From positions 124,001 to 164,343 of the forward strand of contig ML992508.1 in NCBI GenBank assembly GCA_010093995.1: DNA of 40,343 nt, in the 5' to 3' direction. The notes beneath the pieces were generated by a model. That model saw only the letters and a program-made list of their open reading frames with translations, was not told the origin of the DNA and made no database searches. This stretch comes from Elsinoe ampelina. Its lineage: Eukaryota. The translations under genes and the position numbers were made by a program. Position 1 is the first letter of the stretch. Each line of letters starts with the position of its first letter. Below are positions 3,714-32,035 of this stretch, piece after piece.

Positions 3714-4619
3714 TGTGCAATGAGAGGAGACGAGATTTCCAGATGTTTTACATACCTTCTTGTAGCACCATATTGCTGCTGGGCTGGAGGCCAGAGAGTA
3801 AGCTGACAGGGCACAGACGTGCTTACTAGACCGGACATGTCGATCACCACATCACCTTTCCTTCCTTATTTTTGGTACGGAATCATACTGGCGATAGAGA
3901 CCTTGGTCCCGACAGTATCCAGACGTGAGATTGAATCCAGGATGGGCTCTCGAAGGAAAGTAGGAATCCCACCACTGACCGTGCCCAACACACACACCAG
4001 AAATCGGTCATCGAGATATTAAGAAGGAAGCAAGCATCATGTTCTGGGTGGGGAACATCGTTCAAGGACACGGAGAATCGAAAAAAGATAGGAAAAGAAG
4101 GTGGTCGTGCTCAATCTGGCCTACAGTTCCCCGCCAAAAGTTTGAGTAAATTCGCGTCTTTCGTAACACGCGTTGTTCCCTTGTAACTGCTTTAACTACT
4201 AACTATGCTACTATAACGTCGTGTTCTTAGTGAAATAAGCTCAAATATTCGTGCTAGAAATAAAGAGCTATCGCCCTATACCAGAAATATCATTTAAGGC
4301 CGATTAGAAGGTAGTTAAAAAGGTATTAATATTATAGCTAATCTTAGCCTTCCTATCTCGACTATCTTCTTAATACTAGATCGAGTAGTATAAAGGCTTA
4401 TCTAAACTACATAAAGGCCGGCCTAGCAAATTATCTAACCTTAATAAGTATAATATTAAGTATATAGCTAATAGTAATTCCTTTATAACTTATAGTAACA
4501 TTAAGAAGAGCTATCTTCTAACTATTAGTGTCTACACTATCTAATAGTACCTCTATAGCTAGGATATATGTAAATAGGTTATAAAGAGAAGGCTATTAAT
4601 TATAAAGGAGTATATAAAG

Positions 4620-4806
4620 TATTAAAGCCTTATATTAAAGCTATATATGTCGTAATATAGAGAATACCTATCTAACTAAATAGTCTATTAGTAGTAGAAC
4701 TAATTACTATTAAGCTCTAAGCGTAAGTGCTACGTAGGATATTTAAGTACGTTACGTAAGCGGGACTAGCCGCTACTAAGTAATACTCTAATACTAAGCT
4801 CTTATA
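4620..4806 (-). repeat. 3' LTR of Gypsy-1
   Basis: 187-bp direct repeat of 11123-11309; TA..TA ends consistent with RIP-altered TG..CA; differences almost all transitions. Confidence 0.93.
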
Positions 4807-5220
4807 ATTATCTCCTCCTCTAGGAGAGCTATTCTTAGCTCTTAACTAGAAGTATATAATATATAGTATTATTTAGAAGTAACATAGGTATAAGGTAGTT
4901 AAGGTATTTTTATAAAGGTCTTATATATATCTTATATAATGTCTAGTAGTAGTAGTCTTAGAAATCTAGTTTCTAGGGGGGTGTTTATCTAGTTACTATA
5001 GTGCTAAAGCTAATCGGTAGTAATAATATTACTTTTCTTAGAATTTCTAGTAGTATCGTAGGAGACGCGCGCCTTATACTAGTAGCTATAACAAAGATAT
5101 AGTATACTAGAGGTTAGTCTATATAATTTTATCGTTTCTCCTTATATTCTTCTTTTCTACCTAAAATACATCTATATTTTATTAACCTCTTACTATATAA
5201 GTGTACTACCTATAACTATT

Positions 5221-6016
5221 ATATTATCTAACTCTAGCCTCCCTATAGCTAATACTTGTAGCGTAAGGTTAGCTAGTACCTAGGGAGCTATTACTACTAG
5301 CGCTAACTCTATAACTCTCTTACTTCCTAAAGAGAAGGCTAATACCTATACTAGGTATACTAATAGCGTTACTAAGGATAAGCTAATAGAGCTCTTATAA
5401 GAGACATAACTAATTTATAATAGGTTATATCTATACTAGAGATAACTTTAGTATCTTCTTCTATTATAAGTATAAATACTACGCCTATAGTAAGTATATA
5501 TACGAGTTACTTCTATCTATCTTATATAATATATATATTAACGCCTTTAACGTAGTTACTAAGCTTAAGGCCCCCGACTAGGCTAGTATTACTATAGCTA
5601 AGAAGTATATATACGCTATAGCCTATAAGAACGTTCTTAAGGTTAAGAAGTTTAAGACTATACTTAAGGTATACTATACTAATAAGGATAAGGTCGTTAG
5701 TAAGGTCTCGACTCCTTATATAGAGCCTATAGGTAGCTCGCTTAGTAGTATTACGCTTAAGCGTAAGAAGGTTAAGGAGCTATAGAAGATTAGGTATAGC
5801 CTTTATAGCTTAATTACTATTAGTAAGGAGGTAAGTTAGACTATACTTCTTATACGTTATAAATATAGCTAATAGGTTTAGATAGTATATAACTCTAGTA
5901 GTTCTACTACTAAAATTAACTATATTATAGCTAGTAGGTAGCTTATAGCCCCTATAGTACCTATAGGGGAGAATCTTAGTATAGAGATAGACAAGGGTAG
6001 TAATAGGGACGAGTAG
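5221..6016 (+). pseudogene. RIP-mutated antisense, intron-containing ORF inside Gypsy-1 (putative Cys-rich Zn-binding protein, ~230 codons)
   Basis: Near-open frame with four internal stops, all TAG. Intact phase-0 intron 5831-5881 (GTAAGT..GCTAAT..TAG). Probable intron 5397-5451 with RIP-altered donor. De-RIP reading gives CARC and KCEYCAHGKHAC. Confidence 0.6.
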
Positions 6017-9000
6017 GTATATACGAGCTAGGTATGTATCTCTAGCGCTATATCTATAATAAGGCCTTATATAGAGTATAATAGAGTATAGAGTTTAGGT
6101 TAATACCTGTAATAGTAGTATAAGCGTAGCGCTTTATTAAAATACATTTCCCTAGATAAGGAGTTTACTCTTTACCCTATTTATGTATTTATATAATCTA
6201 TCTACTTATATACTTTATAATTTACACCTTTAGCGACCTTTCTTAGCTACTCTTAGCTATAACTCGTATATAGCGATTAGCTCTCTTATATTTACGTAAT
6301 TCTCTTTAGGTTCCTAGCTATTAAACTTAATAGGCTAGTCCTTCTACTTTACTAAGTAGAATACCTTACCCTTTATAGTTCTTCTACCTAGAATCTTCTC
6401 TACTATTTACTTATCTACTTCGTTAGTAAGAGATATACTCTCTTCTAGCTCCTTACTAGCTCTACTTATCTATAGTTTAAGAAGAGATATATAAAAGACA
6501 TTATAGATATAATACTAACTTAGTAAAGCTAGGCGATACACCTATAATTTAATTATGTTAAGTATATAAAATAGGCTAAGGAATTGTAGTTCTATCTTCT
6601 TCTTTAGTATAGATAGCTATAAGTTCTTAGCCGAGAGTAGTACTAAGTTACCTATACTATATACCCTTAGCGTATACTTCCTATTATAGTACTTAGCCTA
6701 GTAGGTAGAAGCCTCTTTCTATTACTCTACTAGCTTCGTATATATATCTCGTAAGTATTATACTAACTCTACTACTACTAGTACTCTTCTCTTTAAAGTC
6801 TCGTCCTAAGACTTAATAGCTATTACTTCTAACTCTAGATAGTAGCTATATATTATTTAGAAGGGGCTTATATATAGCGTAGTATAAACGCTATTATTGC
6901 TTATAAATTCTACTTATAATAGACATTTAGCCTAGTTATTATATAGCTCTATATAGTAGTACCTTAGGTACTATTCTAATATTTAGTTTTACTACTTAGT
7001 TTAACTATCCGTCTATAGGTAAAAGGCTATACTAAGCCTACGCTTTATATGTATTTTGTAATAGAATTTACTCTAGAACTAGCTAGTAAAGACCGATCCT
7101 TAATTACTTACTATTCCCCTTAGGACACTATAATAGTAAATAACGTAGTTATATAGAATCTCTACTAGCTCTATAGATATATACTTCTTAGTAGTAGAGA
7201 TATATAGTAATATCTTAGTATAATAGTCTATAATTACTAGTACTATATTATAGATACTACTACCTTACTTACTTAGTAGTAGGTTAGTAATAAAATCTAT
7301 TATAATTTCTTACTATAGGTAGTCTAGTATTAGTAGTGTACGTAGCTCGCTATAGAGGTAATAGTAGTACACCTTATATTTCTAGTATACTTAGTATAAC
7401 TATATATAGTTATTAATGTCTTTTCTTATAGTTAGCTAGAAGTATTTCTATAAGAGGAAATAAAGCGTCTTATCTTTACTAAAGTAACTAGCCTATTTAC
7501 TATTATAGTATATATATAGTATCTACGCTCTTAAGGTACTATTATTTAGAATAACTAATACATCCTAGTAGAATAAGAGGTTATCTTATAGGTTCTATAG
7601 CGCCTTACTCTTATCTCTACTACTTCCTACTTATAAACGTAGCTTTATAACTTTAGGGTCTTATCCCTATAGTAGCTCTATAACTAATAATAAATTAATA
7701 GATAGATCTTCGAAGAGATTCTCCCTTACTATTACTATAATAGTGACTTACTAGGTCGTTATAAAGCTCTAGAAGTTCTTAGAAGAGATTTTGCCTTTAT
7801 ATAGTATATAGGCGGCCTAGGCCTACTCTAGAGTAGCCTCGTATATAGCTTAAATATGTCTAACTAGCGAAGTAGCTTCTTTAGAGTTAGTAGTCTAGTC
7901 TTAGATCTAGAGCTTATTCTAAAGAGTTAAAAGAAGGTAAGATACCTTCTACTTCTTAGCTATATAGTTAGAGTGCCTCGAGAGTGTATTAGCTAGGTTC
8001 CTCGTACCTAGCTAATACTCTATTATAAAGTTAAAAGTAATAAGGAAGGTAGCCTAGTAAGCTTATTAGCTATTTAGCTATTTTAGCTTTATAAATCCTT
8101 AGAGATTATTATAGTTAGTAAGTACTTAAATCGTATATAAGGTACCTTCGAGGTAGTACTACTATTACTTAAATATATATATAATTACTAATAGCTCTTA
8201 GTTGTACGTCTTATAATTATACTTAGCTAGGATAAACTTCCTTAACTAAAAGGTAATTAGGTACTAAGTACTATCGAATAGCTAAGATAGGATTACTACT
8301 ACTATAAACTTTAATATATTACTTTTAATATATAGAGGTAGTATAGAATTATAGTAACGAAGAATAAGGGTATATATAAAGGCGTCCCTAATGTCCTTAA
8401 ATACCTACTATTTGCTTATACTCTATATAAAAGAGCTATACTTATAACCTTTAACTAAGTCTTTAAGAAGGCTAGAGAGGAGAGTAATAATCTTAAAGTA
8501 GTACTATATAAAGTAATAATAGAAGTTTATAAAGCTAGTAAACTACTAGACCTTATAATAACTCTTTAGCCTCGGCTAATTCTTAATTATAGTTACTCTA
8601 CTAGGATCTATCGAGACACCTATAGTAGAGATAATATAGCTAAGGAATTCTACCTCCTTAGTAAAGAATTTACATTTCTTAAGGTTAGTATATAAAGTAA
8701 ACTTCTATAGCCTTACTAGAATCTTATAAATGTAATATATATAGTTCTCTCTCGAATTACTATAGATAAGAATATTATTAAGGTAGACAATATAGATAGT
8801 ATTAACTAGCCTACCTAGTACCTTATTAATATACGCTTAGAAGGTAGCTAGGGCATTAGTTAATCTAAAAGGTATAACTAAGTACTTAAAATAGCTATAG
8901 TATATATAGAATATAGTCTTCTACTTATTACTATACTTAATAGAGATCCTATAGTAGATATCCTTTAGATCTAACTTCGAGAACTACTAAGCTTACCTAA

Positions 9001-11122
9001 GCTAATTAAGCGTCTTACTAATAAGTAAAAGTAGGTAATAATTCTTAATAGTTACCTTATTTAAGCCCTAGTAATCTACGTATAAGTATAAAGTACTATC
9101 CTTTTTAGGTACGAATAAGATAGAAGTACCTACCTTACTTATAGAGCGCTAGATCTACCTATTTAATTTAGTAGTCTTAAGATAGTTCTTAAGTACTTCT
9201 AGCTTGTTAACTAAAAGGTTATATAAAGGCTAGAATAGAGGCCTTTTACTAGGCTCTAGCTTAATTATATACTTAGTGCCTAGTAGGTATAGTAATTTAG
9301 TAATATTCTTATAGATAAAGATATTAAAGAACTTTACGAACTTTAATAGTAGAGCTAGGTCGCCTACGGCGTAGGTATAGTTCTTAGACAGAGTCTATAC
9401 TATAGTATATACTCTTAGCTTATTCTAGAGATTCTTTATAAAGTCTTCTAGTTTATATAGGTAGACTATATATAAGGAGTAGCTATATAACTAGTTATCT
9501 ATAGTACTATCTATAATTACGTATTATCTTCTTTACTATAGGTACTCTAAAATAACTAGAGGGCCTAGTCCTAAGTCTATAGTATAGAAGAGGCTAATTA
9601 TCTCCCTAAGGTTGCTATAGAAGTCTACTAGATATACGTAAAGATAGTACGTACTATAGTAGAATCTAGCTTACTCTATAAAGAAAAATATACTTAGGTA
9701 CTAAGTATACTTAACTCTTAGTAGATTATAGTAAAGAGTAAATACCTAAGATATAAGATTAACTTCTATATAATTATCTATAAGAAACATATAGTCTTTA
9801 TAGCCTATAGGTGCTATAATAGTGCTATAATAGAGTAGCGATAGGTAAGTATTAATTAAAAGAGAAGTAGAGCTTAGTTACGCTTATTAGCTAAGCCTTT
9901 AGAGTTTACTAGCTTAGAGTTATTAACCTTGTCTATAGTAGCTACCTTATATACTACCTATAACTCCTTATCTTTCTATAAGTACTTTAATCTATACTCT
10001 AGCTTAATATAGCTAGTTCTACTATAGCTATAATACTTAGCGTTCTTCTTCTATACCTCGGAGGTGCTCTCTTACTTACTAAATTATTTAGTAGATAGGT
10101 TAGTAGCCTCCTACTCGCGATAAGCTTAAGAGCTACTACTAGACTAGTAGTAGTTTCCTTCTCGAGAGCTACCTTAGGTCTTATACTTATATAGTAGATT
10201 CGAGTTCTCTTCGTAGGTAGAATGCTTATAGCTTATATAGTTTAATAATTTAATATAAGAGCTAAGAGATACTAATTCTTAGTAAGTAGCTAGAATAGTA
10301 TAGTACTTAATAATAGTAGTACGTAGCGTAGGCTATAACTTAGTAAGGAGATAGTATACTCTTTATTCTTCTAAGTAGAGAGCTAGTTACTTCTCTAGAG
10401 TAGTAAGTTCTAAAGTAAAGGCCTAGATAGATTAGCTCTTATGTTATTAAGCACTCTCGTATATAAGAGTTATATGTACCTTATAGTTAATAGAGTTATT
10501 AACTACGTTCTATATAAACTAGTAAAATTGCTCCTACGTATAGCTCTCTAGGCTATCTATATAGTAGTAGTAATACTACGTCTTATCTAGCTTACTAGCG
10601 AGAAATATAACTCTATATAGTACCTTCTACTAATTAGTAGAATAAGCCTTAGAGGCTAGAGTAAAGATAACCTTGAGATTCTTTAGGAAGGATCTTACCT
10701 CTTTAAGCGTCTTACTCTAATAGGGATAAGGCTCTCTTAATTAAGGTCGTTCTAAGGATAGCCTTATAAATAATCTACCTATACTATATATACTCTAAGT
10801 GCTAGCTTTACTTACTATATACTTCGTAGAGGTATATAAGCTATAGCTAAAGCTAGTAGAAGTATATCCTACATCGTATATACGATATATCTACTTAATT
10901 TCTTCCTTAAGGCTCTAAGCCTTAAGCTCTAGCTCTAAATACTTACGCTTAGCGCGTAGATATAGTAGCTACTCCGTAAGAGTTTCTTCTTCCTTTAGAG
11001 AAGTCTACTTAATAGAGTCTATCTTTATAATATTATTTATACAAGGTATAGGCGCCTTACTAATAGAGTTCTAGTTGTCTATAGAGTCTAATAGATTATA
11101 ACTATAAGGGAGTAATTAGAAC

Positions 11123-11309
11123 TATTAAAGCCTTATATTAAAGCTATATATATTATAATATAGAGAACGCCTATCTAACTAAATAGTCCATTAGTAGTAG
11201 AACTAATTACTATTAAGCCCTAGGCGTAAGCGCTACGTAGGATATTTAAGTACGTTATATAAGCGGGACTAGCCGCTACTAAGTGCCGCTCTAATACTAA
11301 GCCCTTATA
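11123..11309 (-). repeat. 5' LTR of Gypsy-1
   Basis: Direct repeat of 4620-4806, followed by TSD TAAAG. Confidence 0.93.
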
Positions 11310-12779
11310 TAAAGGCTTACTTAAAGTTTGCTAAAGAGTATATTAATTAGATAGAAGAACAATAGTTAAAGGTTATCTAGAGTAATAAGTACTTAGTAGA
11401 GTATAGAACTAGTATTAGATAGCTATAGGTATTTCGCTCTATACTTAATTAGTACTATAAAGACGTAGTTATTCTATTTAAAAAGGGTAAGGATATAAGA
11501 GTAATAGTCTAGTATTGTTAGGGGTAGATTATATTAATACTAGTAAGTATATATACTAATTAACTTATAGTAGTATAAGGATAGCTCTTAATTAGTAGTA
11601 CAAATAATACTTAAGGAAACTATCTTCCTCCGCTAGTACGTAGTAAGATTAGAGCCTATACGTATAGGCTATCTAAAGCTAGCTAGACTCTAGATCCTTA
11701 TACCTAATTAGAAGCTTATATCTTATCCCTAAAGATCTCTATAATAAGTATACCTTTAGAGGCTTTAGCTAGTATAGATTAAACGTAATAAAGAGGGATA
11801 ATAGGTCTATAAAGAAGAGGTATATAGCTTAGTTATACCTATATACTCTCTAGTAAGTACTTATTAGCTAGTATAAACCTAGTCTTATCTTTATATAGAA
11901 TAACGCTAGAATATATATAGCTTATAAGGTTAAAGAGTAGTTTATAAGAAAGGGGATATAGGTAATAGAGTAGCTAGTATACTTACTAGATATAAATCCT
12001 ATCGAGAACCTATAGTACTTATTAAAGAAGCTTCTTTATACTTACTATCTAGAGCTTAATAACCTACTAAAAGACTTAGAGGTACTCTAGAAGGCTATAG
12101 GCTACGCCCTTAAGCAGTGCTAGAAGATAATAGATAAGAAGTTACTATATAAGTTATAGTCTAGCATAAAGAAGAGGATATAAGTAGTTATCTAAGCGCG
12201 GAGTTACTATACTAAATATTAAGCCTTATAAGCACTTTAAAATTTTGAAATTTATAGTATAAGATAGAGCTCTACTTAATAGTTATAATAACACCTCTCC
12301 GAGCTCTATATTATAAGAATTAGTAAAGTTATTTAACCTTAAAAGTTAGTAGTAGAATAGACGGTTGGTAGGGCAACTCCGCAATTTACGCAGACTTTTG
12401 GCTTAGTACTGTAGCTCGTTCCACGAAACCGCCGGCAGGACCCCATGACGATGCGCTCAATCTCTCATCATTCGGGAGTTCCAAGCAGGACAACCTGCAA
12501 CGGCCTTTGACAGGGGCCTTTGTCTCCAACTCGACGTCAACAAATGCTGGTGGTTCTTGATAGGCTATACTGCCGACGTCGACCCTGGAACGAACAGGTG
12601 CACACTCGCTGGCAAGCAGAGTCTGGAGATTGGACAATACCAGATGTCACCTCGTCTCTGCAACCCGCCACTGGACGTCAGAGAGACCCTGCCCATATCG
12701 ACCCCATGGATCGAGAGCAATCATGGCCGCGCGCCGTGGCGGTAGCATCTTCCGGTACCATCTTCTGGAAGACACTGGT

Positions 12780-13920
12780 ATGAGGCCGCGCAAAGGATGT
12801 CAACGCTGCCGAGAGCGGCATGCAAAGTGTACGGTGGAGCAGCCAGGCCGTGCATGTCAGAGGTGTACCAAGTACGGTGAAGACTGTGATTTCCTACCAC
12901 ACTTCCGCTTCCGCTGGGACGTACATCGCACAGAACTACTAGCAGAGGGCGACACACAGCCGAGCGTCGAGTGGTCGGACGAGCAGGTGTGGGTTTCAAT
13001 CAAGAAACGTTGTCAGTGGGTCTTCTGATAGGATCTTGTTAGCAAATGTTTGACCATGGTAGTCAAATATGTCTAAGAAAATGGCCAAGATTCATCCCCT
13101 GGTAGGATCTTCACGAGAGTGTCCTCTAGCAACCACTAAATAATACCAGGTCCCCACATACTCGAGCAAGGTGACACACCAGGAGTACCTAGCACCATAT
13201 CCAGTCGTCCGACTCCTGCGCCAGACTACGTTTCACCCGCTCAAGCGTCGTCGTCAGGGCCGTCGCTAGAGTCTTTCCACTTCCCATTCGACAAGCCTAC
13301 GCCGCCGGCGCACAGGGGCCGGCTGAACCAGCATGACCTTCTATCGGTGGCAAACATGTCGGCCATGCAGTCACCCGCGAATCGTATGATGTCAGCACCT
13401 TCTCCTGGCATGATCAGTCTGTCTTCTATGGGTGAGCTCGAGCAATCTATCGCAAATTCATTCGACCAGACGCCACCTTACGAGATCACCACCAGGCTCG
13501 CGCGTATATCAGGCCTCTCGTTTACCCGTAGGGAGATGCACCTTCTTCAGTACTTTGCTCCCACCCTTGCTCCGCTTGCGGATGTCTGCGAGCTTGGAGA
13601 GCTCATTTCGCGAATGAGGTTCCACGGAGAGCGCTATACGAACCTATGATTCTGCTTGCGGTCTGTGCTGTGTCGTCACGATTCGAATCTATCGAGTATC
13701 TGCTCCTGCTTGCGTCAGAGCCCAATGATCAGCCGGGTCCGGGTTTTGTGTCAACGCATGCTCAAAGAGGCCAGTATCGAGCCAGTTTCTGGTAGTAGGT
13801 TGTTGCTTATAACTGCCAGAAACAATGCCTCAATCACCTATTCGCCATCATGGGCCTGGCCTTGTCGAAGGACAATGTACATAACGCAAAATATACCGCC
13901 TGCCATATGCTGTACTCATG
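12780..13920 (+). pseudogene. Zn(II)2Cys6 transcription factor, degraded (3' end approximate)
   Basis: GCQRCRERHAKCTVEQPGRACQRCTKYGEDC binuclear cluster. After intron 13012-13062 the frame meets TAA at 13074-13076. Later fungal-TF-like segments (LLQYFAPTLAPLADVC; HFANEVPRRALYEPMILLAVCAVSSR) lie in different frames. Confidence 0.75.
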
Positions 13921-14489
13921 TAAGTCAACCATCATGTATTCCTACGAGCTATATCTGCCTTGCCGCCCCTTCATCCGGCCTATCTGATGGGAAGACTTTG
14001 CTACTTTGAAATCAATGTCTTTCCCAGACATCGAAACTCCGGGCGAGCACTTATTCTCAGCAAGATCCGCTTCACCATGACCTCGCTGTTCACACAACGT
14101 GACGAACCAAAGACTGATGTTTACCAGGTGGGTATCTCATCACAAATCGAGTTCAGAGAGAGCAAACCATCCGCTTCCTCAAACGAGTTCCGCAACTTGT
14201 CGTATGGAGGACAAGAGAAACGATTGAGATGTTACAGAGCCAGTGGAACTTGATCAGGACACATGAGATTTTCTGGGTAATCATCTAGTCGCAGCTAATC
14301 ACAATGTATATGCAGTTGCAATTGGACATGGACAAACTTTTCAGGATGGCAACATGTTTTAACGTATTCGATTCATCAACTTCATAACAACGACTACCCT
14401 CAGCCTTCACGATCCAATAGTTCTGGTGACGTGTCCAATCCTTGAGATCTCCTCTGCCCTACGCACCCTTCACTATTCCTATCGACCCA

Positions 14490-15785
14490 CTAGGTCAACG
14501 GAATTGGACACCCCAAATTCTCCAACCCCGTCCCTCCAAGCTTTTTCAAAACAAACGCCACCGTGTCCACCGTCGGCGTCACCACCCCATTCAAACTACT
14601 CGGCACACTCTGCGTCGCCAACTGATACAACAAACAAAGCGTGTTCTTCCCCTCCACAGTCGTCAACTTCCCATCCTTGATAACACCCCCACCCCAGGTG
14701 GGCAAGGCATTAAACCCACCGCTCCCCGTCGCGCCACCGAACAAGACGGGATTCTTGAGGTACATGGCCACAATCTGCAACGTGACGTCGTTGTTGGTGT
14801 AAGGCGCGACACGGTTCGTCCAGTTCTCCGGGATGCGTTCTTCGCCCGTGAACTCGTACTGGCCGCTTCCTGGGGAGGTCTCGCGGGCGCCGAAGAAGGA
14901 AGTGATGGTTTCAATGTCCGGGGCGTAGCCGCGGGTGCCGGATGGCATGAGTTCGTAGAGGAATGAGGCGGCGCCGTAGAGGAGGAGGGACAAGGGACCG
15001 AAGTAGAAGTTGGGGTTGCGCTTGAGGGAGTCTTGGTACCGGTCGTAGCGGTATTGGGCGAGATTGGTGAGGTCGAAGTTGCCCTTGGCTGTGGCGGCCA
15101 TTTGGGAGAAGAGGGTGCCGTTGAAGTTGTAGTTGTCGCCGTTGGCGAGGAAGAAGTCGTTACGGGTCAGCGAGGAGTCGGCTTCGAATTTGTTGTGGCC
15201 GTCGAGGCCAGGTTGGGAGCCGGTCAGGAGAGGATTGAAGGAGGTGCGGGACGTGGCGTCGCAGCCGATGGAGAGACGCTCGGTGACAATGTCGCCGTCG
15301 GTCAGGGTGAGGCCGAGCAAGGCCAGGAGGTTGGCGAGGTCGTAGCCGACATTGTAGACGTTCTGTTGAGCATCGACGAGCTCGCTGTAAGTGACAATAC
15401 CGTCACGGGCAAGGAAGCCGTGGTTGGCTGCGGCGTTTAGTCCCGGGCATGGACCTCGAATATCGTTTGGACCAGGCTTGATGAAGGCGTGGGCATCGTC
15501 ACCGGGAGCAGGGACCTGGTAGCCACCCTTGCCGGTACCTGGTTGGCCATTCTTTGCACCGCCGTAGGGGTACTTGGAGTTGTATGGCACGGCAGGCTGG
15601 TGATTGGCGTTGAACGGGCAGGTGACTGGACCACCCGGGTTACTGCCACCACTTTGCTGACGCTTCGTCTTGGAAGCCTTGTATGCGCTGGAAAGGGGAT
15701 TGGTATTCACCCCAGGCACGTTCGCCACCCAGGGGAAAGCTGTCGCCGAAGCGGCAAAGAGAGATAGTAGCGTGATAGACTTCAT
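14490..15785 (-). CDS. Secreted heme-thiolate peroxidase / long-type unspecific peroxygenase (Peroxidase_2), 431 aa, intronless
   Basis: Signal peptide, KR propeptide site, proximal Cys motif RGPCPGLNAAANHG, HNKFEADSSLTRND; TATA-like run at ~15850. Confidence 0.93.
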   Translation of the reverse strand: MKSITLLSLFAASATAFPWVANVPGVNTNPLSSAYKASKTKRQQSGGSNPGGPVTCPFNANHQPAVPYNSKYPYGGAKNGQPGTGKGGYQVPAPGDDAHAFIKPGPNDIRGPCPGLNAAANHGFLARDGIVTYSELVDAQQNVYNVGYDLANLLALLGLTLTDGDIVTERLSIGCDATSRTSFNPLLTGSQPGLDGHNKFEADSSLTRNDFFLANGDNYNFNGTLFSQMAATAKGNFDLTNLAQYRYDRYQDSLKRNPNFYFGPLSLLLYGAASFLYELMPSGTRGYAPDIETITSFFGARETSPGSGQYEFTGEERIPENWTNRVAPYTNNDVTLQIVAMYLKNPVLFGGATGSGGFNALPTWGGGVIKDGKLTTVEGKNTLCLLYQLATQSVPSSLNGVVTPTVDTVAFVLKKLGGTGLENLGCPIPLT

Positions 15786-17243
15786 ATTGGATGTGTGACT
15801 GGAGTTCTGCTAACTCTTGACTTACCTTCTTGGACACTCCAAGTCCTGGATATATATACTATACCGTGCAAATATCTATGTTCAAGATGCCGCGGCATCT
15901 TTCCTCTGACCCCAGACGTTCCAAATCTTGTTGACGTGCTCAAAAGTGTGTTTGGCTGGGTATGCTGTATTTGAGGAGTGGTACATGTCGATCAATACTA
16001 GTAGTGTAGACCTTGCAATGGTCGCATGAAGGTAAACCAGGGCAGAGTGTCACATCGCATAGTGACGATCTCAAACGGGCAAGCAGGTAACGGCACCTCG
16101 CTGCCGTTTTCTGAAAGTCTGGCAGGGCATGAACGAATGGGACGCGAGTTGATGACGCTGGTGACCAGTTCAGGGTGTGAAACATGCCGCGGTCTGCCAA
16201 AAGAGTGAAGAGGAGAAAGATGAAAGAGGAAACGGCGACAAAACAGGGGGTCAAGCTTTGTGCGGCACCCCGCAATGATCGACACGTCCAAAAGACTCCG
16301 GACGATCACTTCTCCGGCTTCACTTCCTTTTGCCACCCGTGATTGGTAGGAAATTTGGGAAATGACCCAAGCGGCGTATTTGGCTTCGACCGCGCAGTTG
16401 CTTGTACCCGCATCATACTCTTTGGGTCGAGACTTGGTCGTCTGGGGAGCTGGAAAGGGCATTTGCCTCGACACGACCGCTGGCAATGATACAGGCTGAA
16501 GCACAACCAGCGTATTTCCGCGTGCGCCACTATGATGATCTGCACGAGATTCATCACATTCGTAGCACATGTCTCGGGCATTTCGGAGACGTGACTGCTG
16601 TCCTCGAGATCTAGGGGCGAACTCGCGATAGCGTGTAGCCCCCGAACGTCAAGGACAAGAGGGAGTGGACAGAGACGACAACATGGAAGCACCCAACACT
16701 CCTCGTTTTGGCCTGCCCCTCTGGATCGAGCGTATTCCCCCAAAGCAACACTGTTACTTGTCATATTCAGAGAGCAGAATCTGCTTGAATCACAGGACGA
16801 TATCCGACCATAGTCGGCCCGTGAAGTACGAAAGAGGCATTGCTTGTTCCATGTGGTCTACCAATCGCAGCCATCATCACCTCGTCGTCTCTGCCATGGC
16901 CTCGAGCGTGATCCCTCCCGCAGCAGCCTCAACAAGGACCTGTGACATCCCCTCATCCTGTCTGTGGGATACCCCGGTGGGTTCCTGCAGATGCGGCTGG
17001 AAGCAAGCTTCGCCTGTCGACGCACTCTCGCTAATCAAGGTCCGCCATTGGCCAATCTCTCGCCTCTTCACGCTTAGTAAGTTCAAAATCTCCTCAAATG
17101 CTCGTCTAGAGAGCCAAGACGACCTCTTCTCCTCAGATATCACACCCAGAAACGCTGGACATGGCAATGACCTGCCTGTTGAGAGTAATGCCCACTGGGA
17201 TGTTGACCTGCATCAGTCAACACCATAGTGTTGTGGTAGAAGG

Positions 17244-17251
17244 TATAAATA
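17244..17251 (+). promoter_or_regulatory. TATA box of the small secreted peptide gene
   Basis: TATAAATA ~80 nt upstream of ATG 17326, followed by a CT-rich tract. Confidence 0.55.
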
Positions 17252-17325
17252 TGGACTGTTTTCCAGCTCATCTCTTCCTCGCTCCAATCTGTTAGATCCC
17301 AAGTATCCTCGTCAAGCCTCACATC

Positions 17326-17781
17326 ATGCGTCTCGAACCTCTTCTCTTCCTCTTCGGCCTCGCTCTTGCAGCCCCGGGACCCATCGCCGAGCCCAACGCA
17401 GCTCCAGCACCCATCGCTGCCCCTGTAGGCTTCACAGACTACAGCGAAGTCTTCTCTCTCGTAAGCAGTCTTCTCCTCCACTCACCCATGACCTGTACCC
17501 TAACAGTCATCAGGAAAAGAGGCAAACTTGCGGCAGTAAGCTATCCACCATAAGGACCGCTCCGTTAACAGCGCATGGACTTGCTGACAAGCTAGACTGT
17601 AATCGAGAATGCTGCCGCAAGCGCCCTAGCGGCAACTGCGACCCTGGTGGAATCAGCTGCGGGAGATCATACGTAGGTCTTTGAACTTGATAGAGTTTAG
17701 AAAGGTGTCTGACATCAGATGCAGTGCGACTCGAATCAGTATGGCTTCTTCTGCAGATGCGTCTGCGGGTATGGAAAGTAG
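17326..17781 (+). CDS. Small secreted Cys-rich prepropeptide (96 aa; defensin-like or effector candidate); exons 17326-17460, 17514-17535, 17596-17672, 17725-17781
   Basis: Signal peptide, A/P-rich pro region, Kex2 site LEKR, 48-aa mature peptide with 10 Cys. Three GT-AG introns with CTAAC/CTGAC branch points keep the frame. Confidence 0.85.
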
Positions 17782-18096
17782 ACTCCTCGGTACAAGAGTG
17801 TTTCCCACGGATGTAGCGGAGCAAGAAAGAGGAGCCATGCCGAAGCTATCATTATGGTTGCACTGGAAATGGAAATGTTGGGGAGAAACTTGTCAATGTC
17901 TAGGAATACTATCTCCAACCCTCCTGCGGGCTGTGCATCTCGCTACGAGATGTCTAGCATGCCATCATTATCTATCACATCTTTGTCTTCACCTGATCTG
18001 ACATGAATCCAACAGTACCCAAACCCCAATGCCATGCCCATTGCTAATATCAGGAACCGCTCAAACAACCTCCCACCGGCAGTCAACCCATCACAC

Positions 18097-21000
18097 TCAC
18101 ACAGCCTGCGCAGTTCCCCCACCATTCACCTCTCCCTTCCCAAACTCAAACGCCACATCCCTGACCCCATCCTCCTGCTTCCCCGCCCTCACCGTCTCAA
18201 CCTCAGTCGCAGTCAACCCCTTTCTAACCGCCAACACGGAATCCACAATCACCGCATCAATCCCCTCCTTGGCCTGCCTAGCCACATTCTTCGGATCATT
18301 ATTCAACGACCCATAACTAAAACACAACAGTCCACTCTGCCTAACCACCTTGACCAACCGGGGACACATGACCAACGGCGTCGCGGCGGAGACAATACCC
18401 AGTAGATTCCAGCGTGACGCGAACCGGATCGCTTCTTGCAGTGATGAAGCGCGGATGTCGCCCACCGGCGCGGTGCCGGCGTCTGTGAGGAAGAGGACGG
18501 GGATCGAGGGTTGTTTGAACGATAGCAAGAGGCAAATGTCCGGGTGGAAAGAGGAGAAGATGATGTTGCGGCCTTTGCCGAGTTGGTAGACTTTTGTGAG
18601 GACCGTGTCGACGAAAGAGTTGAGTTCGACGGCGTAGGTGTCCATTTCTTGTTCTTCGGATTCGAAGAGCATGGGGTATTCTGGGAGGGGTTAGTAAAGG
18701 TTGATTGGATTGGTAGTGGGGACGTACTCATTTCGATGTTGAAGCCGACCCCCTCTGGTAGCTTCTTGAACATGTCTTCCAGCGTGGCGAATGGAGCTTG
18801 GATAAAGTTTCCTCTACTGTTTGCTTTGAAGCCATTTTGTTTGTAATCTCGTGTGTGCTTCATCCTGTCGTCCATGTTTACCCTTGTATCTTCTTCCGAA
18901 GCCCCTAAAGAGTAAGACCGCTGTGGTCGGCCTTTACGTCCTCCGTTGTCATTGCCATTGGTGCCGTTCGATGGAGAGGCAGGACGAGACTGCCGCGAGG
19001 TAGCTCCATCATTCGCATGCAAGAATTGCTCGAGTGTAAGTGTATGCACTGGTGCATCAATGCCAGTCTCGCTGACCAGGAAATCATGGTAGATGACCGG
19101 AACCAGATCCTTGGTGAGCTGGACATCAAATTCCACATATGATGCGCCGAGGTTAGATGCTGCGATGAAGGATGGTATGGTGTTTTCTCCTAGCTGCAGC
19201 GACTTCATCGCGGCCATGTTCTTTCCAAGCCCACGATGTCCGATAATCTGTGTTGAAGTCCTCTTCCAGTATGTCTTGTTCTCGGTGATGGTCATGTTTG
19301 GATGAGAGAACGGCGTGATGATCAAGAAGTTAAAGTTGGCCGTGCCGATGACGTCCAGAGTGTCCGCTGCCACAATAGGGACGCTGAGATCACCTTGCAG
19401 ATTGATCCGTTTCGATCCTACACCTGGACGGATAGTATTAAGCATAGCGACACCTCGGCCGAGAACCTTGTCTTTGGTCCCTGCATAGGTCGGCACAATG
19501 TCAAATAGGATCTTGACTTTCGTAGGATCTGTAGAGGTGAATGTGATGGGCGATGTGCTGATATTTTCTTGGACAGGGAGATCGATGATTGTCGGCTCTC
19601 CGGTCGCACCCATAGCTGAGACCACTATCGAAAGTGCCGTATCGAGCTGTGTGGAGTGTGCGCTGGCCAGAGGGACGTTCTCCAGCTTGACAGCAGGATA
19701 GTCTTTTCGAGCATCCATTGATCCAAGACTGACAAGAATCAAGCTCTCGTTGGTCAGGTATCTGTGGCCGAAGGATTTGACCGGCTCGGGAGGGCGAGCA
19801 GCATTCGCATCTTTGAAGAGGGCATTTGAAGTTCGATCTCCCAGCGAGGAGGCCACGGATGTATTGCCGTTAACAGGTCGGAGTGGTGGACTGTCAGTCG
19901 CTGAGTCAACCGTCAAGTCAGCAAGACGTGTCGCGATTTCCAGATGTCCTCTGAGAGCCGCATGCTCAATTGGCTTCCAACCAGATGCGTCTGGTCTATT
20001 TACCTGTGCGCCAGATGACAATAGAAGGTCCACGATCTTTAGCTGCCCATCTACGCAGGCGACGAACATGGGAGTCCAGCCAAAAGTCTTCCCAGCAAGC
20101 TCGAGATCGGGCTTCTGGATGTCCGAGCCTTCGAGAAGGGCGACCATGCAATCTTCATAACCAAAGCGAGCAGCAACGTGCAAAGCCGTCTCCCCTTGCT
20201 CGTCCTGGTGATTGACGTTGACACCAGCCTCTACAAGCAAGCGAACGATCTTGTAGAAATTCGATTTCGTGGCTAGAGTGAGAACAGAACCAGATTTGTC
20301 GACTCTCTGCCGAGCATGAATCTCCTCGTCGTGCTCGTGCTGCCAATTCTCTGCAAGAAGAAGTGCTTTGGTGGTCCTGTAATGCCCACCCAGAACGCTG
20401 AGATGAAGGGGAGCAAAGCCTTCAGTATCCTGCCAGTATGCAGAATCGATGCCTTGAGACACATCAAACTGGTCCCATTCCTGCATGTGTCTGACGAGCT
20501 CCTGGGATGCGGCTACAAGACCATATTGCGCAGCATAGTGCAGCGGGATCCTACCGTACATGTCGCGAGCAAGCAGAGCAGGTCGCTGCTCTGGTTTGAG
20601 GCTATTCAAAACATGGACAAGTAGCTTGATGGACGGATCGGCCTTGCCCAATGTTTTGTCCACGTCTCGTTCTTCCACCTTGAAGGCTCCTGCCGCGAGT
20701 CGAGGGAACTCGGCAGCTGGGATGAAGTTGACTGGATCCGGCAATTCTTCACCCACAGGCTTGTTTTGGTTGTCAATCACTCTTCCCCGGCCAACAGATA
20801 TGATGTAACGGTGTATGATGTTCCTCTTGTTCATGTCGTCTTCCTCTTCCAAGGGCCCTGAGATTGAGAGAAGATAAGGAATACTGTTTGTGGCTTTGCA
20901 GGTAATGGCACGATGCAGCAAGCCGAGCAACACCTTGGACCGCTGTGGCTCCGGCAAGTCTGATGGTATAACATTGAAGAGCTCTCTGATCTCGTCGACT

Positions 21001-21702
21001 GCATCTTGTCGAACGGCACCCTCGAGACCTTCCAGAGTGGCTCCAGGTATGCGGACAGCATTGCGAGACACGGTACGTTGCAGCGAGCCAGTCGAATGGA
21101 CCGATGCTTTATCGTCGAAGATCTTGACCTCTGCAAGCGCTGACAGCCAGTCATTTACCGCACGCATGTCATTCGTAAGCCGGAAGTTGGAGGCAAAGGG
21201 CTTTGGGTCGACTTTTGTAGCAAGGTATCTGCTTTGCGCGGAGGAAGCTGTGATCTTCTTGTCCAGCTTCTTCGTGATCTTGACAAAACCCCTCCGGTTG
21301 ACCTCTCCATACCACTGAAGCTTTCTGTATTGACTGCGGAGCTCAAGGAGGGCCCCCATCAGGTCTTCAAGCTCTTCCCTGTCCATCTCCTCTTGTGGCT
21401 TGGCTGTAGTGCCATACCGCTCGTACAGCAGGCGCAGGCGACGAGAGAACTCGGCATATTTCTTGTTGTAGAAGAAGTCGACATCTTCCAGGTTGCGATC
21501 AAGGGCATAGAAGAATTCTAAGAGCAGATTAGTCGTGTGTGTTGCAGGCAAACTGCTCATGCATACCTGCCAGGTCTGCTCCCCCTTCGGCAGTCTCTTC
21601 CTTATGGGCAGACTTGATGAGTTTTTTCAAGCCTTTATAGTTGATATAGGAAGAGGACCACTCGGGGACCTGATTGCGTGCAAGATTCTGGCCGAACTTC
21701 AT
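18097..21702 (-). CDS. GDE1: Glycerophosphocholine phosphodiesterase (SPX-ankyrin-GDPD); introns 21518-21566 and 18681-18727
   Basis: SPX start MKFGQNLARNQVPEWSSSYINYKGLKK, ankyrin repeats (GETALHVAARFG), GDPD motifs IIGHRGLG, ENT, VEFDVQLTKD, FNIEMKYP. Confidence 0.96.
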
Positions 21703-22462
21703 CCTGGCGTGGTGTAATTTGCGCGGCGGTGTAGAAGATTTGCTCGAATCACGACCGCGTCGCGAGCAACGACAGGAAGGTCGAGGGTGGATGTCAAGAC
21801 ATTGATATGCCCAGATAGAGGATTCCCTATCTCAACCTGGTCGTCTTTGGTTGCACAGGTCCATTGACACGAGCAGGGGTTGTGATAGCCATGGAAATTG
21901 ACTGTATGCAAGATTGTCCACAGATCGAAGTGGGGTGAAGTGTTGAGATAGAGAGGAGCTGCAAACTGTGACATCAAGTTAAACAAGCATGTGAGAGTCT
22001 GAGACGTTCTGGTTGGCTCAAACGTGTCACCGTCCCTGAAAGATCAAGAGACCCTGCCGCTCTTGGGCCCGTTGGCTTTTGACCAAAAAAAAAGAGAGTC
22101 ATCAAACCGTGGGACCCACGTGTCCTTCATCTGTTCGAGGCCTCCAAGGTGGCTTCCCCACATTAATCGCAAACTACGAACCAGTAGATCATCTGTCAAT
22201 GTGGTATAGATAGCATGGGCGAGATGCATTGGAGCGGCGAGGCCGAGTCCAAGACCATAGCTTGCATTTGGCGTCCAAAGAGACCATGGAACAGGCGGGT
22301 GACACCAGGACGGGCGGCTAATTGCCTTGAGTCTGGCTCGTTATCGGTCAAGTCACACTTGCGCCACATGCTTCGTACAGTCATGTCTGGTGATATGTCT
22401 GATGTCTTGGAGGACGATAGGCTTGACTCCTCCTCGTAACCGTCTGTCCTCGTGCTCACATC

Positions 22463-24617
22463 ATGCCCCGCCTGATCATATCGACAACTGGCTCGACCGA
22501 CAAGATCCTACCAGTACTCCTTGCCAGCACATACGTCAACAAGCATGGTGATTTGCCCTTCGTGGAAGTCACATTCGAGCACAGCGACGACGCTGAGATA
22601 TCGGATGCGCCTGTCAAGCTTGAACTTGACGATGGTCTAGAGCTGGTCAGGCAAGAAGTGATCCTCTGCAAGCTTGCCGCGTTCGCGTCCTTGGGTGACA
22701 ATGTTGACTATCAGAATGTGAAGATTGAGCCGCCTGTGTTTCAACGTCAGCTAAGAGAAGCAGGTAGGAACCTGGACAGACAAGTCTATGCGATTCAGCA
22801 ACGCCGGCTACAAATCCTTGCAGGAGCATCTCAGCGAGCTCGACGAGCATCTGACGTTACGCTCCTATATTCTTGGTCATCAACTGAGCCTGGCGGATGT
22901 CGTCGTGTACGGCAGCCTTCGTGCCAATCATGTCGCGATGGCGGTCGTGGCGCACCAGACGAACGTACAAAGATGGATGGCGCTTGTCTTGTCCGTGACT
23001 CCTTGGGTTGAAGAGTCGAGGACTGCATTGCACGCACGCCTGGATGGATCAAAATCAAGCACAGACAGCATAGCTAGTATGATCGCGCGGGCGAGGGAGA
23101 TATCTGGTGGACCAGTGGTTACTCGCTTTCCACCTGAGCCATCAGGATACCTACATATTGGCCATGCTAAAGCTGCCTTGCTGAATCATGTCCTCGCCCA
23201 CGAGAGCGGTGGTCATTTGGTGTGCAGGTTCGACGACACAAATCCGTCAAAGGAGTCTCAGGAGTATCAGGACTCTATCCTGGTCGACCTTGCCGCCATC
23301 GGAGTCAAGCCTGATCGAATCACCTATTCCAGCGACTACTTTGATGCAATGTTTCAAGCTTGTAGAAAATTGATCACGTCGGGCCACGCATATGCGGACG
23401 ACACTGACGGACCGAGCATGAAACAACAGCGATGGCATGGTCTGGAGAGCAGAAATCGGGAGGCAGACATCAACATGTCGCTGGCGAAACTCGATGAGAT
23501 GAGGGATGGGACCGAGGAAGGTCTGCGATGGTGCATTCGAGCCAAAATCTCCGTGGACAACGTCAACAAGGCACTTAGAGATCCAGTCATCTACCGCTGC
23601 AACCTGGAACCTCATCATCGTACTGGGTCAACATGGAAGATGTACCCAACCTACGACCTTTGTGCGCCGCTTGTCGACTCTATGGAAGGTGTCACTCTAG
23701 CTCTGCGTACTACAGAGTACAACGATCGAAATGCGCAGTATGCTTGGATGCAACAGGCTCTACAGCTTCGAGGGGTTCCTGTATGGGAGTTTGGCCGATT
23801 GTCATTCGCACAGACTGTACTCTCAAAGCGAAAGCTGTCACAAATTGTCGATGCTCGAGCTGTCGCAGGCTGGGATGATCCGAGGATCCCAACGATTCGA
23901 GGTTTACTACGTAGAGGTCTGACCGTTCCCGCGCTTCGAAGCTTTATCAGAGAGCAGGGTCCCAGCCGGAATGTAGTCACTCTCGACTGGAGTCCCTTGT
24001 GGGCAATTAACAAGAAACAAATCGACCCAGTTGCTCCAAGATATACCGCCGTCCGCACCAACCGAATGGTTGTCCTCTCGATCAACGGTATTTCGAGCAC
24101 ACGTACGGAGTGGCAGCCCAAGCATACGAAGAATCCAGCAATCGGCACGAAGAAGATAGTGTATGGAAACCGCATTCTGATCGATCAGGATGATGCAAAG
24201 ACGCTCGAACTTGATGAAGAAGTCACACTTATGACCTGGGGCAACGCGGTTGTCAGCAAGCTAGAGAGAGTCCAAGGCCATGTCACCACTGTGAGCATGG
24301 AACTTCGCTTGGATGGGAATGTCAAAGAGACCAAGAAGAAATTGACGTGGCTATCAAGCGACCAAGATCTCACTCCGGTCGTCTTGCATGAATTTGGATC
24401 TCTTCTCAAAAAAGATAAATTGGGTAAGGACGATGACTTACAGGACTGTCTGAATATCTGCTCGGAAAGTATGCAAGAGGCTGTGGCCGACTGTAACGTG
24501 AGAGACTTGCTGGCGGGAACTATCATCCAATTCGAGCGGTATGGCTATTACCGTATCGATCAAGCAGCCGAGACCAAAGTTCCAGCACAGTGCTTCAAAA
24601 TACCGACTGGCAAATAG
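22463..24617 (+). CDS. GUS1: Cytosolic-type glutamyl-tRNA synthetase (~702 aa), apparently divergent; intron 22718-22763
   Basis: GST-like N-domain (HLTLRSYILG..LSLAD), VVTRFPPEPSGYLHIGHAKA (HIGH), RFDDTNP, LSKRKL, GWDDPR, C-terminal IIQFERYGYYRID..IPTGK. Confidence 0.92.
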
Positions 24618-25945
24618 TTGCGGCAGATCAATGATTTGACAGACGGGTCTTGCTGGAAGCCCTGAATGAGCACATGTCTTTCGGCGGATCGTGCGTATTT
24701 AGTGCCCAAGATTGGTTCACACCATGACTATGCAGCCGTCCACCGTGCTCGATCACGATTCGCCCTACCATGCTGTCGGAATGAGAAGATGGACCCGAGC
24801 TCGAAAATGCAGCTTGCGCGGCGGGCTACTCTTCGTAGGAGAGAGCGAGACAGTTTAACGTGCGCCATGGGGGTTTGCAGCTCCCCCCCCTTTGCAGGCC
24901 CACGGCGGCAAGCTCGCTAATTTAACTCGATATAGAGACGGGCCGCGTCATGCCGAGAAGCGACGCCTATCGGCGCACGAGCCGCAGCTCCGGTATTTGG
25001 CTTAAATAGGCAATCGAGAAATCCCCAAGTTTTGCTCGATAGCTTTAGTATTAACTACCTAATTACTATAATATACCCTCTTCTAGAACTACTACTATAT
25101 ACTATAAAGAGGCAATTTAAGCTACAATTACTAAATATTATGCCTCTAAACACTCTCTGAGCTTTAAAAAGCTTGCCTATTACTATCTAGAAGTAGTTAT
25201 AACAACTCTATTATACTATATTTAGGGCCTCTATACTATATAGTTAAGCGTAGCTATACTATAATAATAACTTACCCCTACGTAAGAGAAGGCCTTAGTT
25301 AGATATATTAAGTATCTTATTAATAGTAGATACTCTCCTACTTATACTATAATTAGTAAACTTACTAATTAAATTATCTAGTATAACTAGATAAATAACT
25401 TCTCTCTCTCTTACTAGTCTTAGTCTTAGCCTATTAGCAAAAACTAGCCTTATAAGTTCCTTAAATATTATCTAGAACTATCCCTTAAGCGTACTTAAGC
25501 TCTTAATAGTAAAAGAGCAAATAAGAACTAAGATCTAGCTTCTATTAAGTTGTAGTTTAGCACCTTAGAAGCGATAATTAACTAGTATAATATTAATAGT
25601 TAGAACATATATAATATAGATAAGACTAGATATATAATAGGCTAAACTAGCCTAGCTTAGTTAGTTATTAAGAGAGACTTAAAGGCACTAATACGCTACT
25701 AACTAGAGAATAGAATATAGGCTACAACTATTAAGACTCTAAGTGCTAGTAGCTATTAAATACCTCTCTATATTATCATTAAAGGTAGTAATATTAATAT
25801 TAATTAGAGCTACTAGCTTGCTTAACTATTACTATAAGATAGCGTATAAAACAGTAAGATAGTAGTATTATAAAATAGCTAGTTAGATAAGAATTATACT
25901 ATCGAGTAGTTATACCTTTTTTGTAAGTATATAAGACTTTACTAT

Positions 25946-26148
25946 TAATTACAACTAGTAAGACAAGGGAGTTAATTACGTCTATTTATTAAGATATCGA
26001 GACTTAGAAAAAGAAGAAGAAAACTAGTATATAAAGTACATATAATATCGAGAGTAAAGTAGCTAGAAGCCTAAGCTATAATACTAAGATTACGTAACTA
26101 ATCCGAACTATATCTTAACCGAATTTAGTTTATATCTATCTTGTATTA
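25946..26148 (-). repeat. 3' LTR of Gypsy-2
   Basis: 203-bp direct repeat of 32036-32238. Confidence 0.93.
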
Positions 26149-27745: not shown

Positions 27746-27845
27746 CGAAATAGGTAGCAAAATAGGTAGCGAAATAGGTAGCGAAATAGGTAGCGAAATA
27801 GAAGGTAAAATAGAAAGTAAAATAGAAGGTAAAATAGGTAGCGAA
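27746..27845. repeat. 12-bp minisatellite (~8 copies, CGAAATAGGTAG / TAAAATAGAAGG) inside Gypsy-2 pol
   Basis: Directly visible tandem array, unit length divisible by 3, between RNase H and integrase. Confidence 0.85.
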
Positions 27846-30800: not shown

Positions 30801-32035
30801 TAAAAGTAGTAAGGTTATTAGTGTCGTAGTTAACTAGAGTATTACGTAGCTTATTAAATATCTTCTAATAGATCTAGTATAGCTACTCCTCTTTAGCGAT
30901 CTTAGCGTAAAGAGCATACTTATTAAACTTACTAATAAAGAAGTTAAACGTGCTATTACGCTAGAAGAGGTTAGTAAACTAAGTACGTATAGTAGCTCTA
31001 TAGTTAGGATCCTTAAAGCGCTAGGCTAGAAAGGTAAGAACCTCTTTAACGCTAATAACGTTATTACTAGCTAAGTCTATAATAAGAGTATAGGCTTCTC
31101 TAGAGAGGTATAAGTATAGATAGATAAACTAGGTATCTCTTATAGAGAAATAATCTATATTAGTATATATCTTGTTCCTTATCTAGTACTTAAAGACCTC
31201 GAACTACTCTAGTGTACCTATACTAAAGATAGTAGAGTCTAGTATCTTTTCTAATAAGGTAGAGCCGCGTATAGAAAGAGCTAGTATACTATACTCTATC
31301 TCGTTTTTTAGTTAGTTTACCTTAGTCTTAAGCTCTTAGATTTTGTCTAGGTAGTAAGTAGCTTAGGTAGTAACGCCGTTAGTATAGAACTAAGATGCGT
31401 CTAGTTTAGATTAGAGATTACCGAGCTAGGCCTAAGTAGTATCTAACTTATAGTAATAGTAGAGAGCGTTAGTATAAGTGCCTTTTACCTACGTAGTTTA
31501 CTTATTATAGAAGGACTTAATATAGTTAAATACGTCTCTTAGTGCCTATATACTATACTCTTTCTATAGCTTCTTAAGAAGTATAGCGTCGAAGAGGGCA
31601 AAAAGATTATAGTAGAGAGAGTAGATAGAGGTGTTATTATTATTAGAGATAGGTTAAGGTAGCTTACTTTAGTAGCGCTCTTCGTCGCTATAGTTAGATT
31701 AAGCTATACTCGGCATAGTTAGTCATAAATAAAATAGTATAAAACGTTAATACGTAATAAAGAGAATATTAAAATTTTTAGCTAGTAGTTTACTTTCTTT
31801 AAGAGTTATCTATAACTCGACTTATTACCTTCTTCTTATATCTTTAAGGTTCGCGGTATTAACTTATATAGTAGTAGCGAGGATCTATTATAATATATGC
31901 GGAAACTATAGTTATAATAGCTTCTTTTTTAATTCTTTATAAGTAGTAGTTATTAGTAGTTATATAAGTAGTAGAATAACTAGATAATTCGATAGCTCTA
32001 TTGCTTAGTTATAGTTGTTCGAAGTCTCGATATAG

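Follow-up and report, generated by a model that had tools for sequence, protein, structure and literature searches.

A copy of a Ty3/Gypsy chromovirus family in the genome of Elsinoe ampelina carries, between pol and its 3' LTR, a plus-strand reading frame of about 230–270 codons in three blocks. This stretch is probably a RIP-inactivated accessory gene of the element family, spliced and antisense to gag-pol, in the layout designated aORF-3R and shared with the fungal gene brtn. One short intron at least, and probably a second, is needed to read the gene. In the present copy it is dead: its start is unrecognisable, four premature stops interrupt it, and the donor of the second intron is altered. 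All coordinates given here refer to the window, i.e. the whole stretch of DNA analysed, which comprises 40,343 nt (GenBank assembly GCA_010093995.1, contig ML992508.1, positions 124,001–164,343 of the forward strand).

The window contains two AT-rich blocks of about 30% GC (4.2–12 kb and 25–34 kb) amid gene-bearing DNA of about 52% GC, and a RIP signature is present in both of them. In the stretch holding the extra ORF and in the adjoining pol, the ratio TpA/ApT is 2.1 and the ratio (CpA+TpG)/(ApC+GpT) is 0.06–0.08, while the values in the gene-bearing DNA of the window are 0.57 and 1.26 respectively. CpA and TpG are converted almost fully to TpA in the RIP-like blocks.

Positions 4620–11309 are a complete insertion of a Ty3/Gypsy chromovirus (Metaviridae) on the minus strand. 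A direct-repeat search, refined by alignment, delimited two LTRs of 187 nt each, about 90% identical to one another (3' LTR, 4620–4806; 5' LTR, 11123–11309, both minus strand), and the alignment revealed an identical 5-nt target-site duplication beyond them (4615–4619 on the 3' LTR side, 11310–11314 on the 5' LTR side). The 3' LTR is abutted by a polypurine tract (4807–4821), purine-rich on the sense (minus) strand of the element as read from the sequence. Gag-pol lies on the minus strand, and Pfam searches showed the domain order RT – RNase H – integrase – chromodomain in a single minus-strand frame. The pol core (6476–9076) includes RVT_1 (8630–9076), RNase H (8045–8404), the integrase zinc domain (7400–7543) and a Tf2-type SH3 domain (6476–6652); the chromodomain forms the C-terminus of pol (about 6263–6406; Pfam Chromo, E = 4.8e-5, residues 1572–1619 of the pol frame). 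RVT_1 and two RNase H models exceed the Pfam curated cut-offs, while Chromo (23.6 vs 25.1 bits), SH3_Tf2-1 (21.3 vs 30) and Integrase_H2C2 (17.7 vs 25.5) fall below them. The pol frame is interrupted by 156 stops in 1,619 codons, every one of them TAA or TAG, as is expected from saturating RIP of Gln, Trp and some Arg codons. From the chromodomain to the 3' LTR the distance is about 1.45 kb.

Two minor features were observed at the ends of the element. The 25 nt just beyond the target-site duplication (4590–4614) match those just inside the 5' LTR (11098–11122), where the primer-binding site is expected, at about 19 of 25 positions; this likeness may be due to chance in AT-rich DNA, or may be the trace of an insertion beside an older copy. 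In addition, loose ends at 4781–4811 are formed by two contigs of a DNA run (X1, see below) with a much GC-richer LTR end, which diverge exactly at the LTR boundary. These contigs are probably solo LTRs, too short for RIP, and from them it seems that the usual TG once stood at the start of the LTR.

The extra ORF was assessed by stop counts and by a home-made hidden Markov model of codons, of modest power, in which ancestral codons are read through context-dependent C-to-T and G-to-A change; its prior rests on five genes of the window confirmed by Pfam, with 2,766 codons in all (the RIP-aware model). Next to the polypurine tract lies a spacer (4822–5103) with no frame preference, which contains 8–13 stops per 100 codons in all frames and has no clear best frame in the RIP-aware model. 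The first block of the ORF (5104–5396, plus strand, codon start at 1 mod 3) is part of a frame that meets one stop, the TAG at 5281, within the 102 codons of 5092–5397, and the second block (5452–5830, plus strand, codon start at 2 mod 3) has two TAG in 126 codons. In both blocks the plus frame ranks first of the six in the RIP-aware model, and in block 2, which also holds a Tyr-rich cluster and a basic Lys/Arg patch, it scores 31–50 nats above the off-frames. The third block (5882–6016, plus strand) contains one internal TAG (5939) in 44 codons and shows a weak preference for the plus strand. Between the end of the extra ORF and that of pol lies a stop-dense spacer (6017–6262), in which the frame of pol has 8 stops in about 55 codons (6095–6257). 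The ORF at 5104–6016 is thereby located between the chromodomain (6263) and the LTR (4806), which is the location by which aORF-3R genes are defined.

Splicing of 5221–5396, 5452–5830 and 5882–6016 yields a model of 230 codons with internal TAG stops at 5281, 5579, 5783 and 5939 and a terminal TAG at 6014, so that the earlier note on this DNA, which had described a plus-strand frame of about 230 codons with four internal TAGs, was correct in its count. The same note had regarded the fact that all four are TAG as compatible with RIP; the stops are indeed TAG, but this carries little weight, nearly all stops in this DNA being TAA or TAG. As for the start, the position proposed earlier (5221) is one candidate, but the frame is open from 5092 on and three further ATA codons (5104, 5197 and 5212) are available. 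No ATG survives as a start of the plus frame in this copy, and the start codon may lie upstream of 5221, each ATA being a candidate former ATG. At the other end, the terminal TAG (6014–6016) could itself be RIP-made, and the next stops are found at 6029 and 6089.

The openness of this frame stands out against its surroundings. The plus exon frame has 2 stops per 100 codons at 5100–5400 and likewise 2 at 5400–5700, while the off-frames of the ORF stretch have 21–24 and the true sense frame of pol has 5–11. An empirical null was obtained from the other RIP-like DNA of the window by sliding windows at every offset on both strands, with the pol genes included. None of the 28,398 windows of 417 nt elsewhere in this DNA had two stops or fewer, and one stop or none was found in 16 of the 29,064 windows of 306 nt. 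It follows that the ORF stretch is a former coding region or the mirror image of one, and is not a product of chance. The plus frame is, moreover, strongly 3-periodic, and its register shifts exactly at a short stop-dense gap. These stop counts, the empirical null, the 187-nt LTRs and the 5-bp duplication bear out the claim that a former coding frame is enclosed within the boundaries of the element.

The better defined of the two introns is a candidate of 51 nt in phase 0 (5831–5881, plus strand), whose donor is a perfect GTAAGT and whose acceptor, a TAG, is preceded at a distance of about 10 nt by a CTAAT branch site. Within it, the exon frame meets 4 stops in 17 codons, compared with about 1.5% stops over the rest of the frame, and the plus exon frame is here the worst-scoring one in the RIP-aware model. 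While GTAAG alone is common in the RIP-like DNA (102 occurrences), the full pattern GTAAGT..CTRAY..YAG occurs four times in 2 x 16.5 kb of it, one of them exactly on the stop cluster. Donor, branch site, acceptor and stop cluster all agree with the intact phase-0 intron that had been proposed at this position.

A probable second intron joins the two frames of blocks 1 and 2. The plus frame of block 1 is closed from 5398 and that of block 2 is open only from 5414, so that none is open across 5398–5413, and no insertions or deletions are listed among the family copies (contigs of run X1, see below); therefore, an intron is required at this point. Its ends are not unique, because 10 donor/acceptor models give an equal stop count. 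Among these is the intron of 55 nt at 5397–5451 (plus strand) originally proposed, whose donor reads ATAAGA in this copy and would be the best one if its first A was a G; that A is in a TpG-to-TpA context. An intron at the gap is thus supported, but the nine other models fit as well as the proposed one.

The distribution of the segment among copies of the family was assessed with a DNA run carrying the same species label (run X1), in which half of the sampled words of the stretch occur and which provided 2,404 contig pieces on 4400–7000 at 80% likeness. Summed contig depth, a measure that does not give copy number, starts from 152 in the unique flank and jumps to more than 24,000 at the 3' LTR; it amounts to 22,000–62,000 over the LTR, 7,000–22,600 (mostly 12,000–22,000) over the spacer and ORF (4835–6226), and 19,000–35,000 over pol. 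On this measure, again not to be taken as a copy number, the extra segment reaches about 60% of the depth of pol and about 100 times that of the unique flank. This cover suggests that the segment is cargo of the whole family, and its resemblance to that of the flanking pol makes a one-off capture very unlikely, in line with the suggestion of the earlier note that it can be a stable part of the element. Transitions account for 211 of the 214 variable sites of the X1 contigs over 4400–7000, and among the 40 of these 214 sites that are listed none coincides with one of the four TAGs, with 5397 or with a candidate start. One X1 contig skips 110 nt in the third coding block (5900–6011), and at least one copy is therefore a deletion variant. 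Three runs presumed to be RNA yielded no pieces on 4400–7000, a result that does not bear on expression.

That the segment is a passenger without function is unlikely. According to this explanation, a fragment of a host gene, introns included, or of another mobile element would have been trapped in reverse orientation in the founder of the family and multiplied with it, at no time serving the element. The extra ORF fits the host codon prior unusually well, the margin of 31–50 nats over the off-frames comparing with at most 10 nats for pol windows of equal length; the introns suggest a genomic rather than a retro-copied origin; the start codon and the ends of the ORF are undefined; and a second Gypsy family is present in the window without such a segment, its pol being separated from the 3' LTR by about 300 nt in which no comparable frame was found. 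On the other hand, one would expect some 0.9 kb of dead weight in the copies of a family to disappear or degenerate ahead of RIP, whereas the frame was essentially intact when RIP struck, its four stops being all of the type that RIP makes. In addition, plant antisense ORFs at a like position are reported to be kept family-wide (PMC7264820, PMC11963269). It should be noted that the passenger explanation concerns origin and use, and as such overlaps with that of an accessory gene. The stop density of the extra ORF is about one-fifth of that of pol, and this, together with the codon fit, may indicate a host origin or merely a low content of Gln and Trp.

The assignment of the coding strand requires some care, because RIP is symmetric and causes transitions only, so that stop types, purine/pyrimidine periodicity and the reversibility of stops are all blind to strand. 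The minus frame that is codon-aligned with block 2 is the frame of pol, and it has 5 stops in 241 codons over 5372–6094. It is therefore conceivable, if decidedly improbable, that the coding strand is the minus one, the segment representing either a third ORF in sense orientation, located downstream of pol, or a C-terminal extension of the latter (5372–6094), and the plus strand being open only as its mirror. The minus frame does share the register of pol and contains ORFs of 94, 85 and 44 codons at 5372–6094; it reads through 5831–5881, where it needs no intron; and it is the best frame at 5755–5845 in the sliding model. However, about 170 nt with 8 stops in some 55 codons of the frame of pol part this ORF from the chromodomain, so that it would hardly be a continuation of pol. 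Furthermore, the minus reading gives no account of 5092–5397, where the plus frame has 1 stop in 102 codons, the minus frames have 7–22 per 100, and only plus is open.

The RIP-aware model points in the same direction. The plus frame leads its codon-aligned minus counterpart by +9.3 nats in block 1, +5.5 in block 2 and +2.5 in block 3. As a control, the model was applied to 19 windows from the pol genes of both elements, and it favoured the true sense strand in 16 of them, with a median margin of +6.4 and a worst result of -2.3. With flatter priors (synonymous codons flattened, or all 61 codons equal), the plus sign was kept for blocks 1 and 2 with smaller margins, while the sense strand won in 14 and 12 of the 19 control windows respectively. 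The minus frame loses by 5–6 nats in block 2, and it also loses by about 5 nats over 5453–6013 with plus forced to read through the intron, but this last advantage shrinks to +0.2 with a flat codon prior. In its composition (Leu 18%, Glu 0.8%) the minus frame is typical of an antisense read. A search that included the minus frame returned no homologue of it, a weak point in that the true chromodomain was missed as well. Overall, stop counts at 5100–5400, the RIP-aware model and its pol control uphold, with a moderate margin, the claim that the coding strand is opposite to gag-pol, and we regard plus as very likely the coding strand.

The idea that no gene was ever there, and that a biased composition shaped by RIP yielded the open frames as a by-product, is hardly credible, since, although RIP-saturated DNA is low in complexity (TpA/ApT 2.1) and no homologue or domain was found, 16.5 kb of like DNA contains no comparably open window, and the frame shows strict 3-base periodicity with a register change exactly at the stop-dense gap.

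The layout is already known, and a fungal precedent exists. The earlier note was aware of no characterised fungal equivalent, but this is contradicted by brtn, an antisense gene located between pol and the 3' LTR in the Boty-like Gypsy elements from Botrytis cinerea as well as Sclerotinia sclerotiorum (Zhao et al., 2011, Virology 417:248); a Monilinia transcript resembling BRTN is also on record. A search of the literature for fungal antisense accessory genes retrieved brtn as the only case. As described, brtn resembles the extra ORF in belonging to a fungal chromodomain Gypsy element, in occupying the strand opposite gag-pol between pol and the 3' LTR, and in that its function is unknown. The setting differs from that of the Boty host, the genes here having about 52% GC, RIP being saturating and the copy being dead, and the likeness drawn here to brtn is one of layout. 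New here would be the second fungal family of this kind, one whose cargo contains introns and whose host is RIP-active.

Antisense ORFs between pol and the 3' LTR, i.e. aORF-3R, are also described in the plant elements Grande, RIRE2, Retand (with a TRP28 domain) and PvRetro13; they occur in the majority of a family's copies, and their products are presumed to be nuclear or DNA-binding regulators (PMC7264820, PMC11963269). Their position and orientation are the same as those of the extra ORF, whereas the plant carriers are mostly non-chromovirus elements and the distance from pol to the LTR in Retand is 2.9–6.6 kb, against 1.45 kb here (PMC7264820, PMC11963269). The antisense genes of complex retroviruses are mentioned alongside them in one of these sources (PMC11963269). 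A further parallel is offered by hAT elements of Pyrenophora tritici-repentis that carry a histone H3-like gene, where again a mobile element multiplies an extra and possibly host-derived ORF (PMC3538342). However, hAT is a DNA transposon whose cargo belongs to a recognisable host family, while the present carrier is an LTR retrotransposon and a host relative of its cargo was not found.

If the stretch is an antisense accessory gene, it would be transcribed from a promoter of its own in the spacer at 4822–5103, which would possibly provide the 5' UTR of the plus gene as well, or from the 3' LTR acting in antisense direction, and transcription would converge towards pol. Its introns would outlast retrotransposition because the sense-strand genomic RNA would contain no splice signals. 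By analogy with other antisense genes of retroelements, the product might act in the nucleus on the expression of the element or on host silencing.

A bolder and tentative proposal, for which we see some chance but which on balance we doubt, is that the gene is unrelated to brtn and encodes a small basic nuclear protein with a metal-binding His/Cys cluster, forming a conserved functional part of a chromovirus of RIP-competent ascomycetes. If so, fungal Gypsy elements would have gained antisense regulators more than once, in parallel with Retand/Grande and with retroviruses, and the unusual closeness of its codons to those of the host would indicate that a host gene had been domesticated to serve the element. 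HBZ of HTLV-1 is spliced, lies on the strand opposite to gag-pol near the 3' LTR, and is transcribed inward from the 3' end. The likeness to HBZ is an analogy only, since it concerns animal retroviruses and involves no sequence relation.

Accessory antisense genes of LTR retrotransposons still have no demonstrated function. A second fungal family, with introns, would widen the comparison and would show antisense cargo riding through reverse transcription. In addition, it would flag a class of ORFs that is discarded by the annotation of RIP-rich fungal genomes. The copy described here is dead and without present function in its genome, and its value is that of a pointer to the family.

The protein deduced from the plus frame is rich in Lys (10.9%) and also in Ser, Ile and Tyr. 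Stops make up 1.5% of the frame, vs 5.8–7.9% in two pol frames, which implies that the ancestor was poor in Gln and Trp. The product would accordingly appear to be a basic, Lys/Glu-rich protein, poor in these two residues, whose basic patch might be nuclear-targeting or nucleic-acid-binding and one of whose clusters was perhaps once His/Cys-rich. The Lys/Arg patch near the end of block 2 could serve nuclear targeting. The Tyr content (10.9%) does not distinguish the frame from the RIP-damaged pol frame of the same element (11.6%), and it is a general product of RIP, which turns the codons of both His and Cys into those of Tyr.

The description of the product as Cys-rich, with a Zn-cluster-like spacing, is not supported. 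A sole Cys codon survives (5257), and the proposed cysteines are Tyr codons, which ancestrally could equally have been Tyr, His or Cys. The string of cysteines had been obtained through a choice of RIP reversals, and one of the positions relied upon is Asp. When the Zn(2)-Cys(6) pattern (CX2CX6CX5-12CX2CX6-8C) was tried across the join of blocks 1 and 2, no fit was found even with all Tyr taken as Cys; the position of the third Cys is occupied by Asp in this copy and by Gly in the majority of the others (5378 A>G, among the variant sites listed). At the start of block 2, 8 of 14 residues are Tyr, and the stretch of pol where Tyr is most crowded, with 7 in 14, coincides with the integrase zinc site; a His/Cys metal site at the Tyr cluster is possible on the strength of this pattern. 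Four Tyr codons of the cluster fit, by eye, the spacing of a zinc knuckle (CX2CX4HX4C); where Tyr is so dense, such a fit may well arise by chance, and the Gly that usually follows the second Cys is absent.

Homology searches gave no matches. Pfam searches at E <= 1 with all three plus frames of 4807–6500 found no family, including no TRP28, and a Pfam search with the frame of pol gave no domain past the chromodomain. A word-indexed protein search with the plus frame of 5414–6016 (stops as X) returned 135 near-length and 2 shorter candidates, none of which scored, and a HMMER scan of 1.84 billion representatives gave 0 matches at E <= 0.001. Likewise, none of the 7,052 candidates for a minus-frame query comprising the SH3 domain, the chromodomain and the downstream stretch matched at E <= 0.001, and scans of IMG/VR with block 2 and with the RT region produced none that was confirmed. 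Because the query containing the true SH3 domain and chromodomain also found nothing, these blanks say little about novelty, and they reflect RIP damage as much as novelty.

The second Gypsy element of the window (25943–32238, minus strand) is RIP-degraded as well; its LTRs of 206 nt (25943–26148 and 32033–32238) are 90% identical, and its RT region shares 67–81% nucleotide identity with that of the first element. Its pol frame contains, between the RNase H and SH3 matches, about 10 tandem copies of a 12-nt unit (27724–27891), which encode in the sense frame a repeat rich in Ser, Leu, Pro and Ile. The genes flanking the AT-rich blocks (158–1576, 14493–15809, 18306–21626, 22755–24614 and 35261–36394) encode, respectively, a GH28 polygalacturonase, a family-2 peroxidase of the haem-thiolate type, a GDE1-like protein with ankyrin repeats and a GDPD domain, a Glu/Gln-tRNA synthetase and a sugar transporter. 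The GDE1-like protein also gave a weak SPX match, just below the Pfam cut-off.
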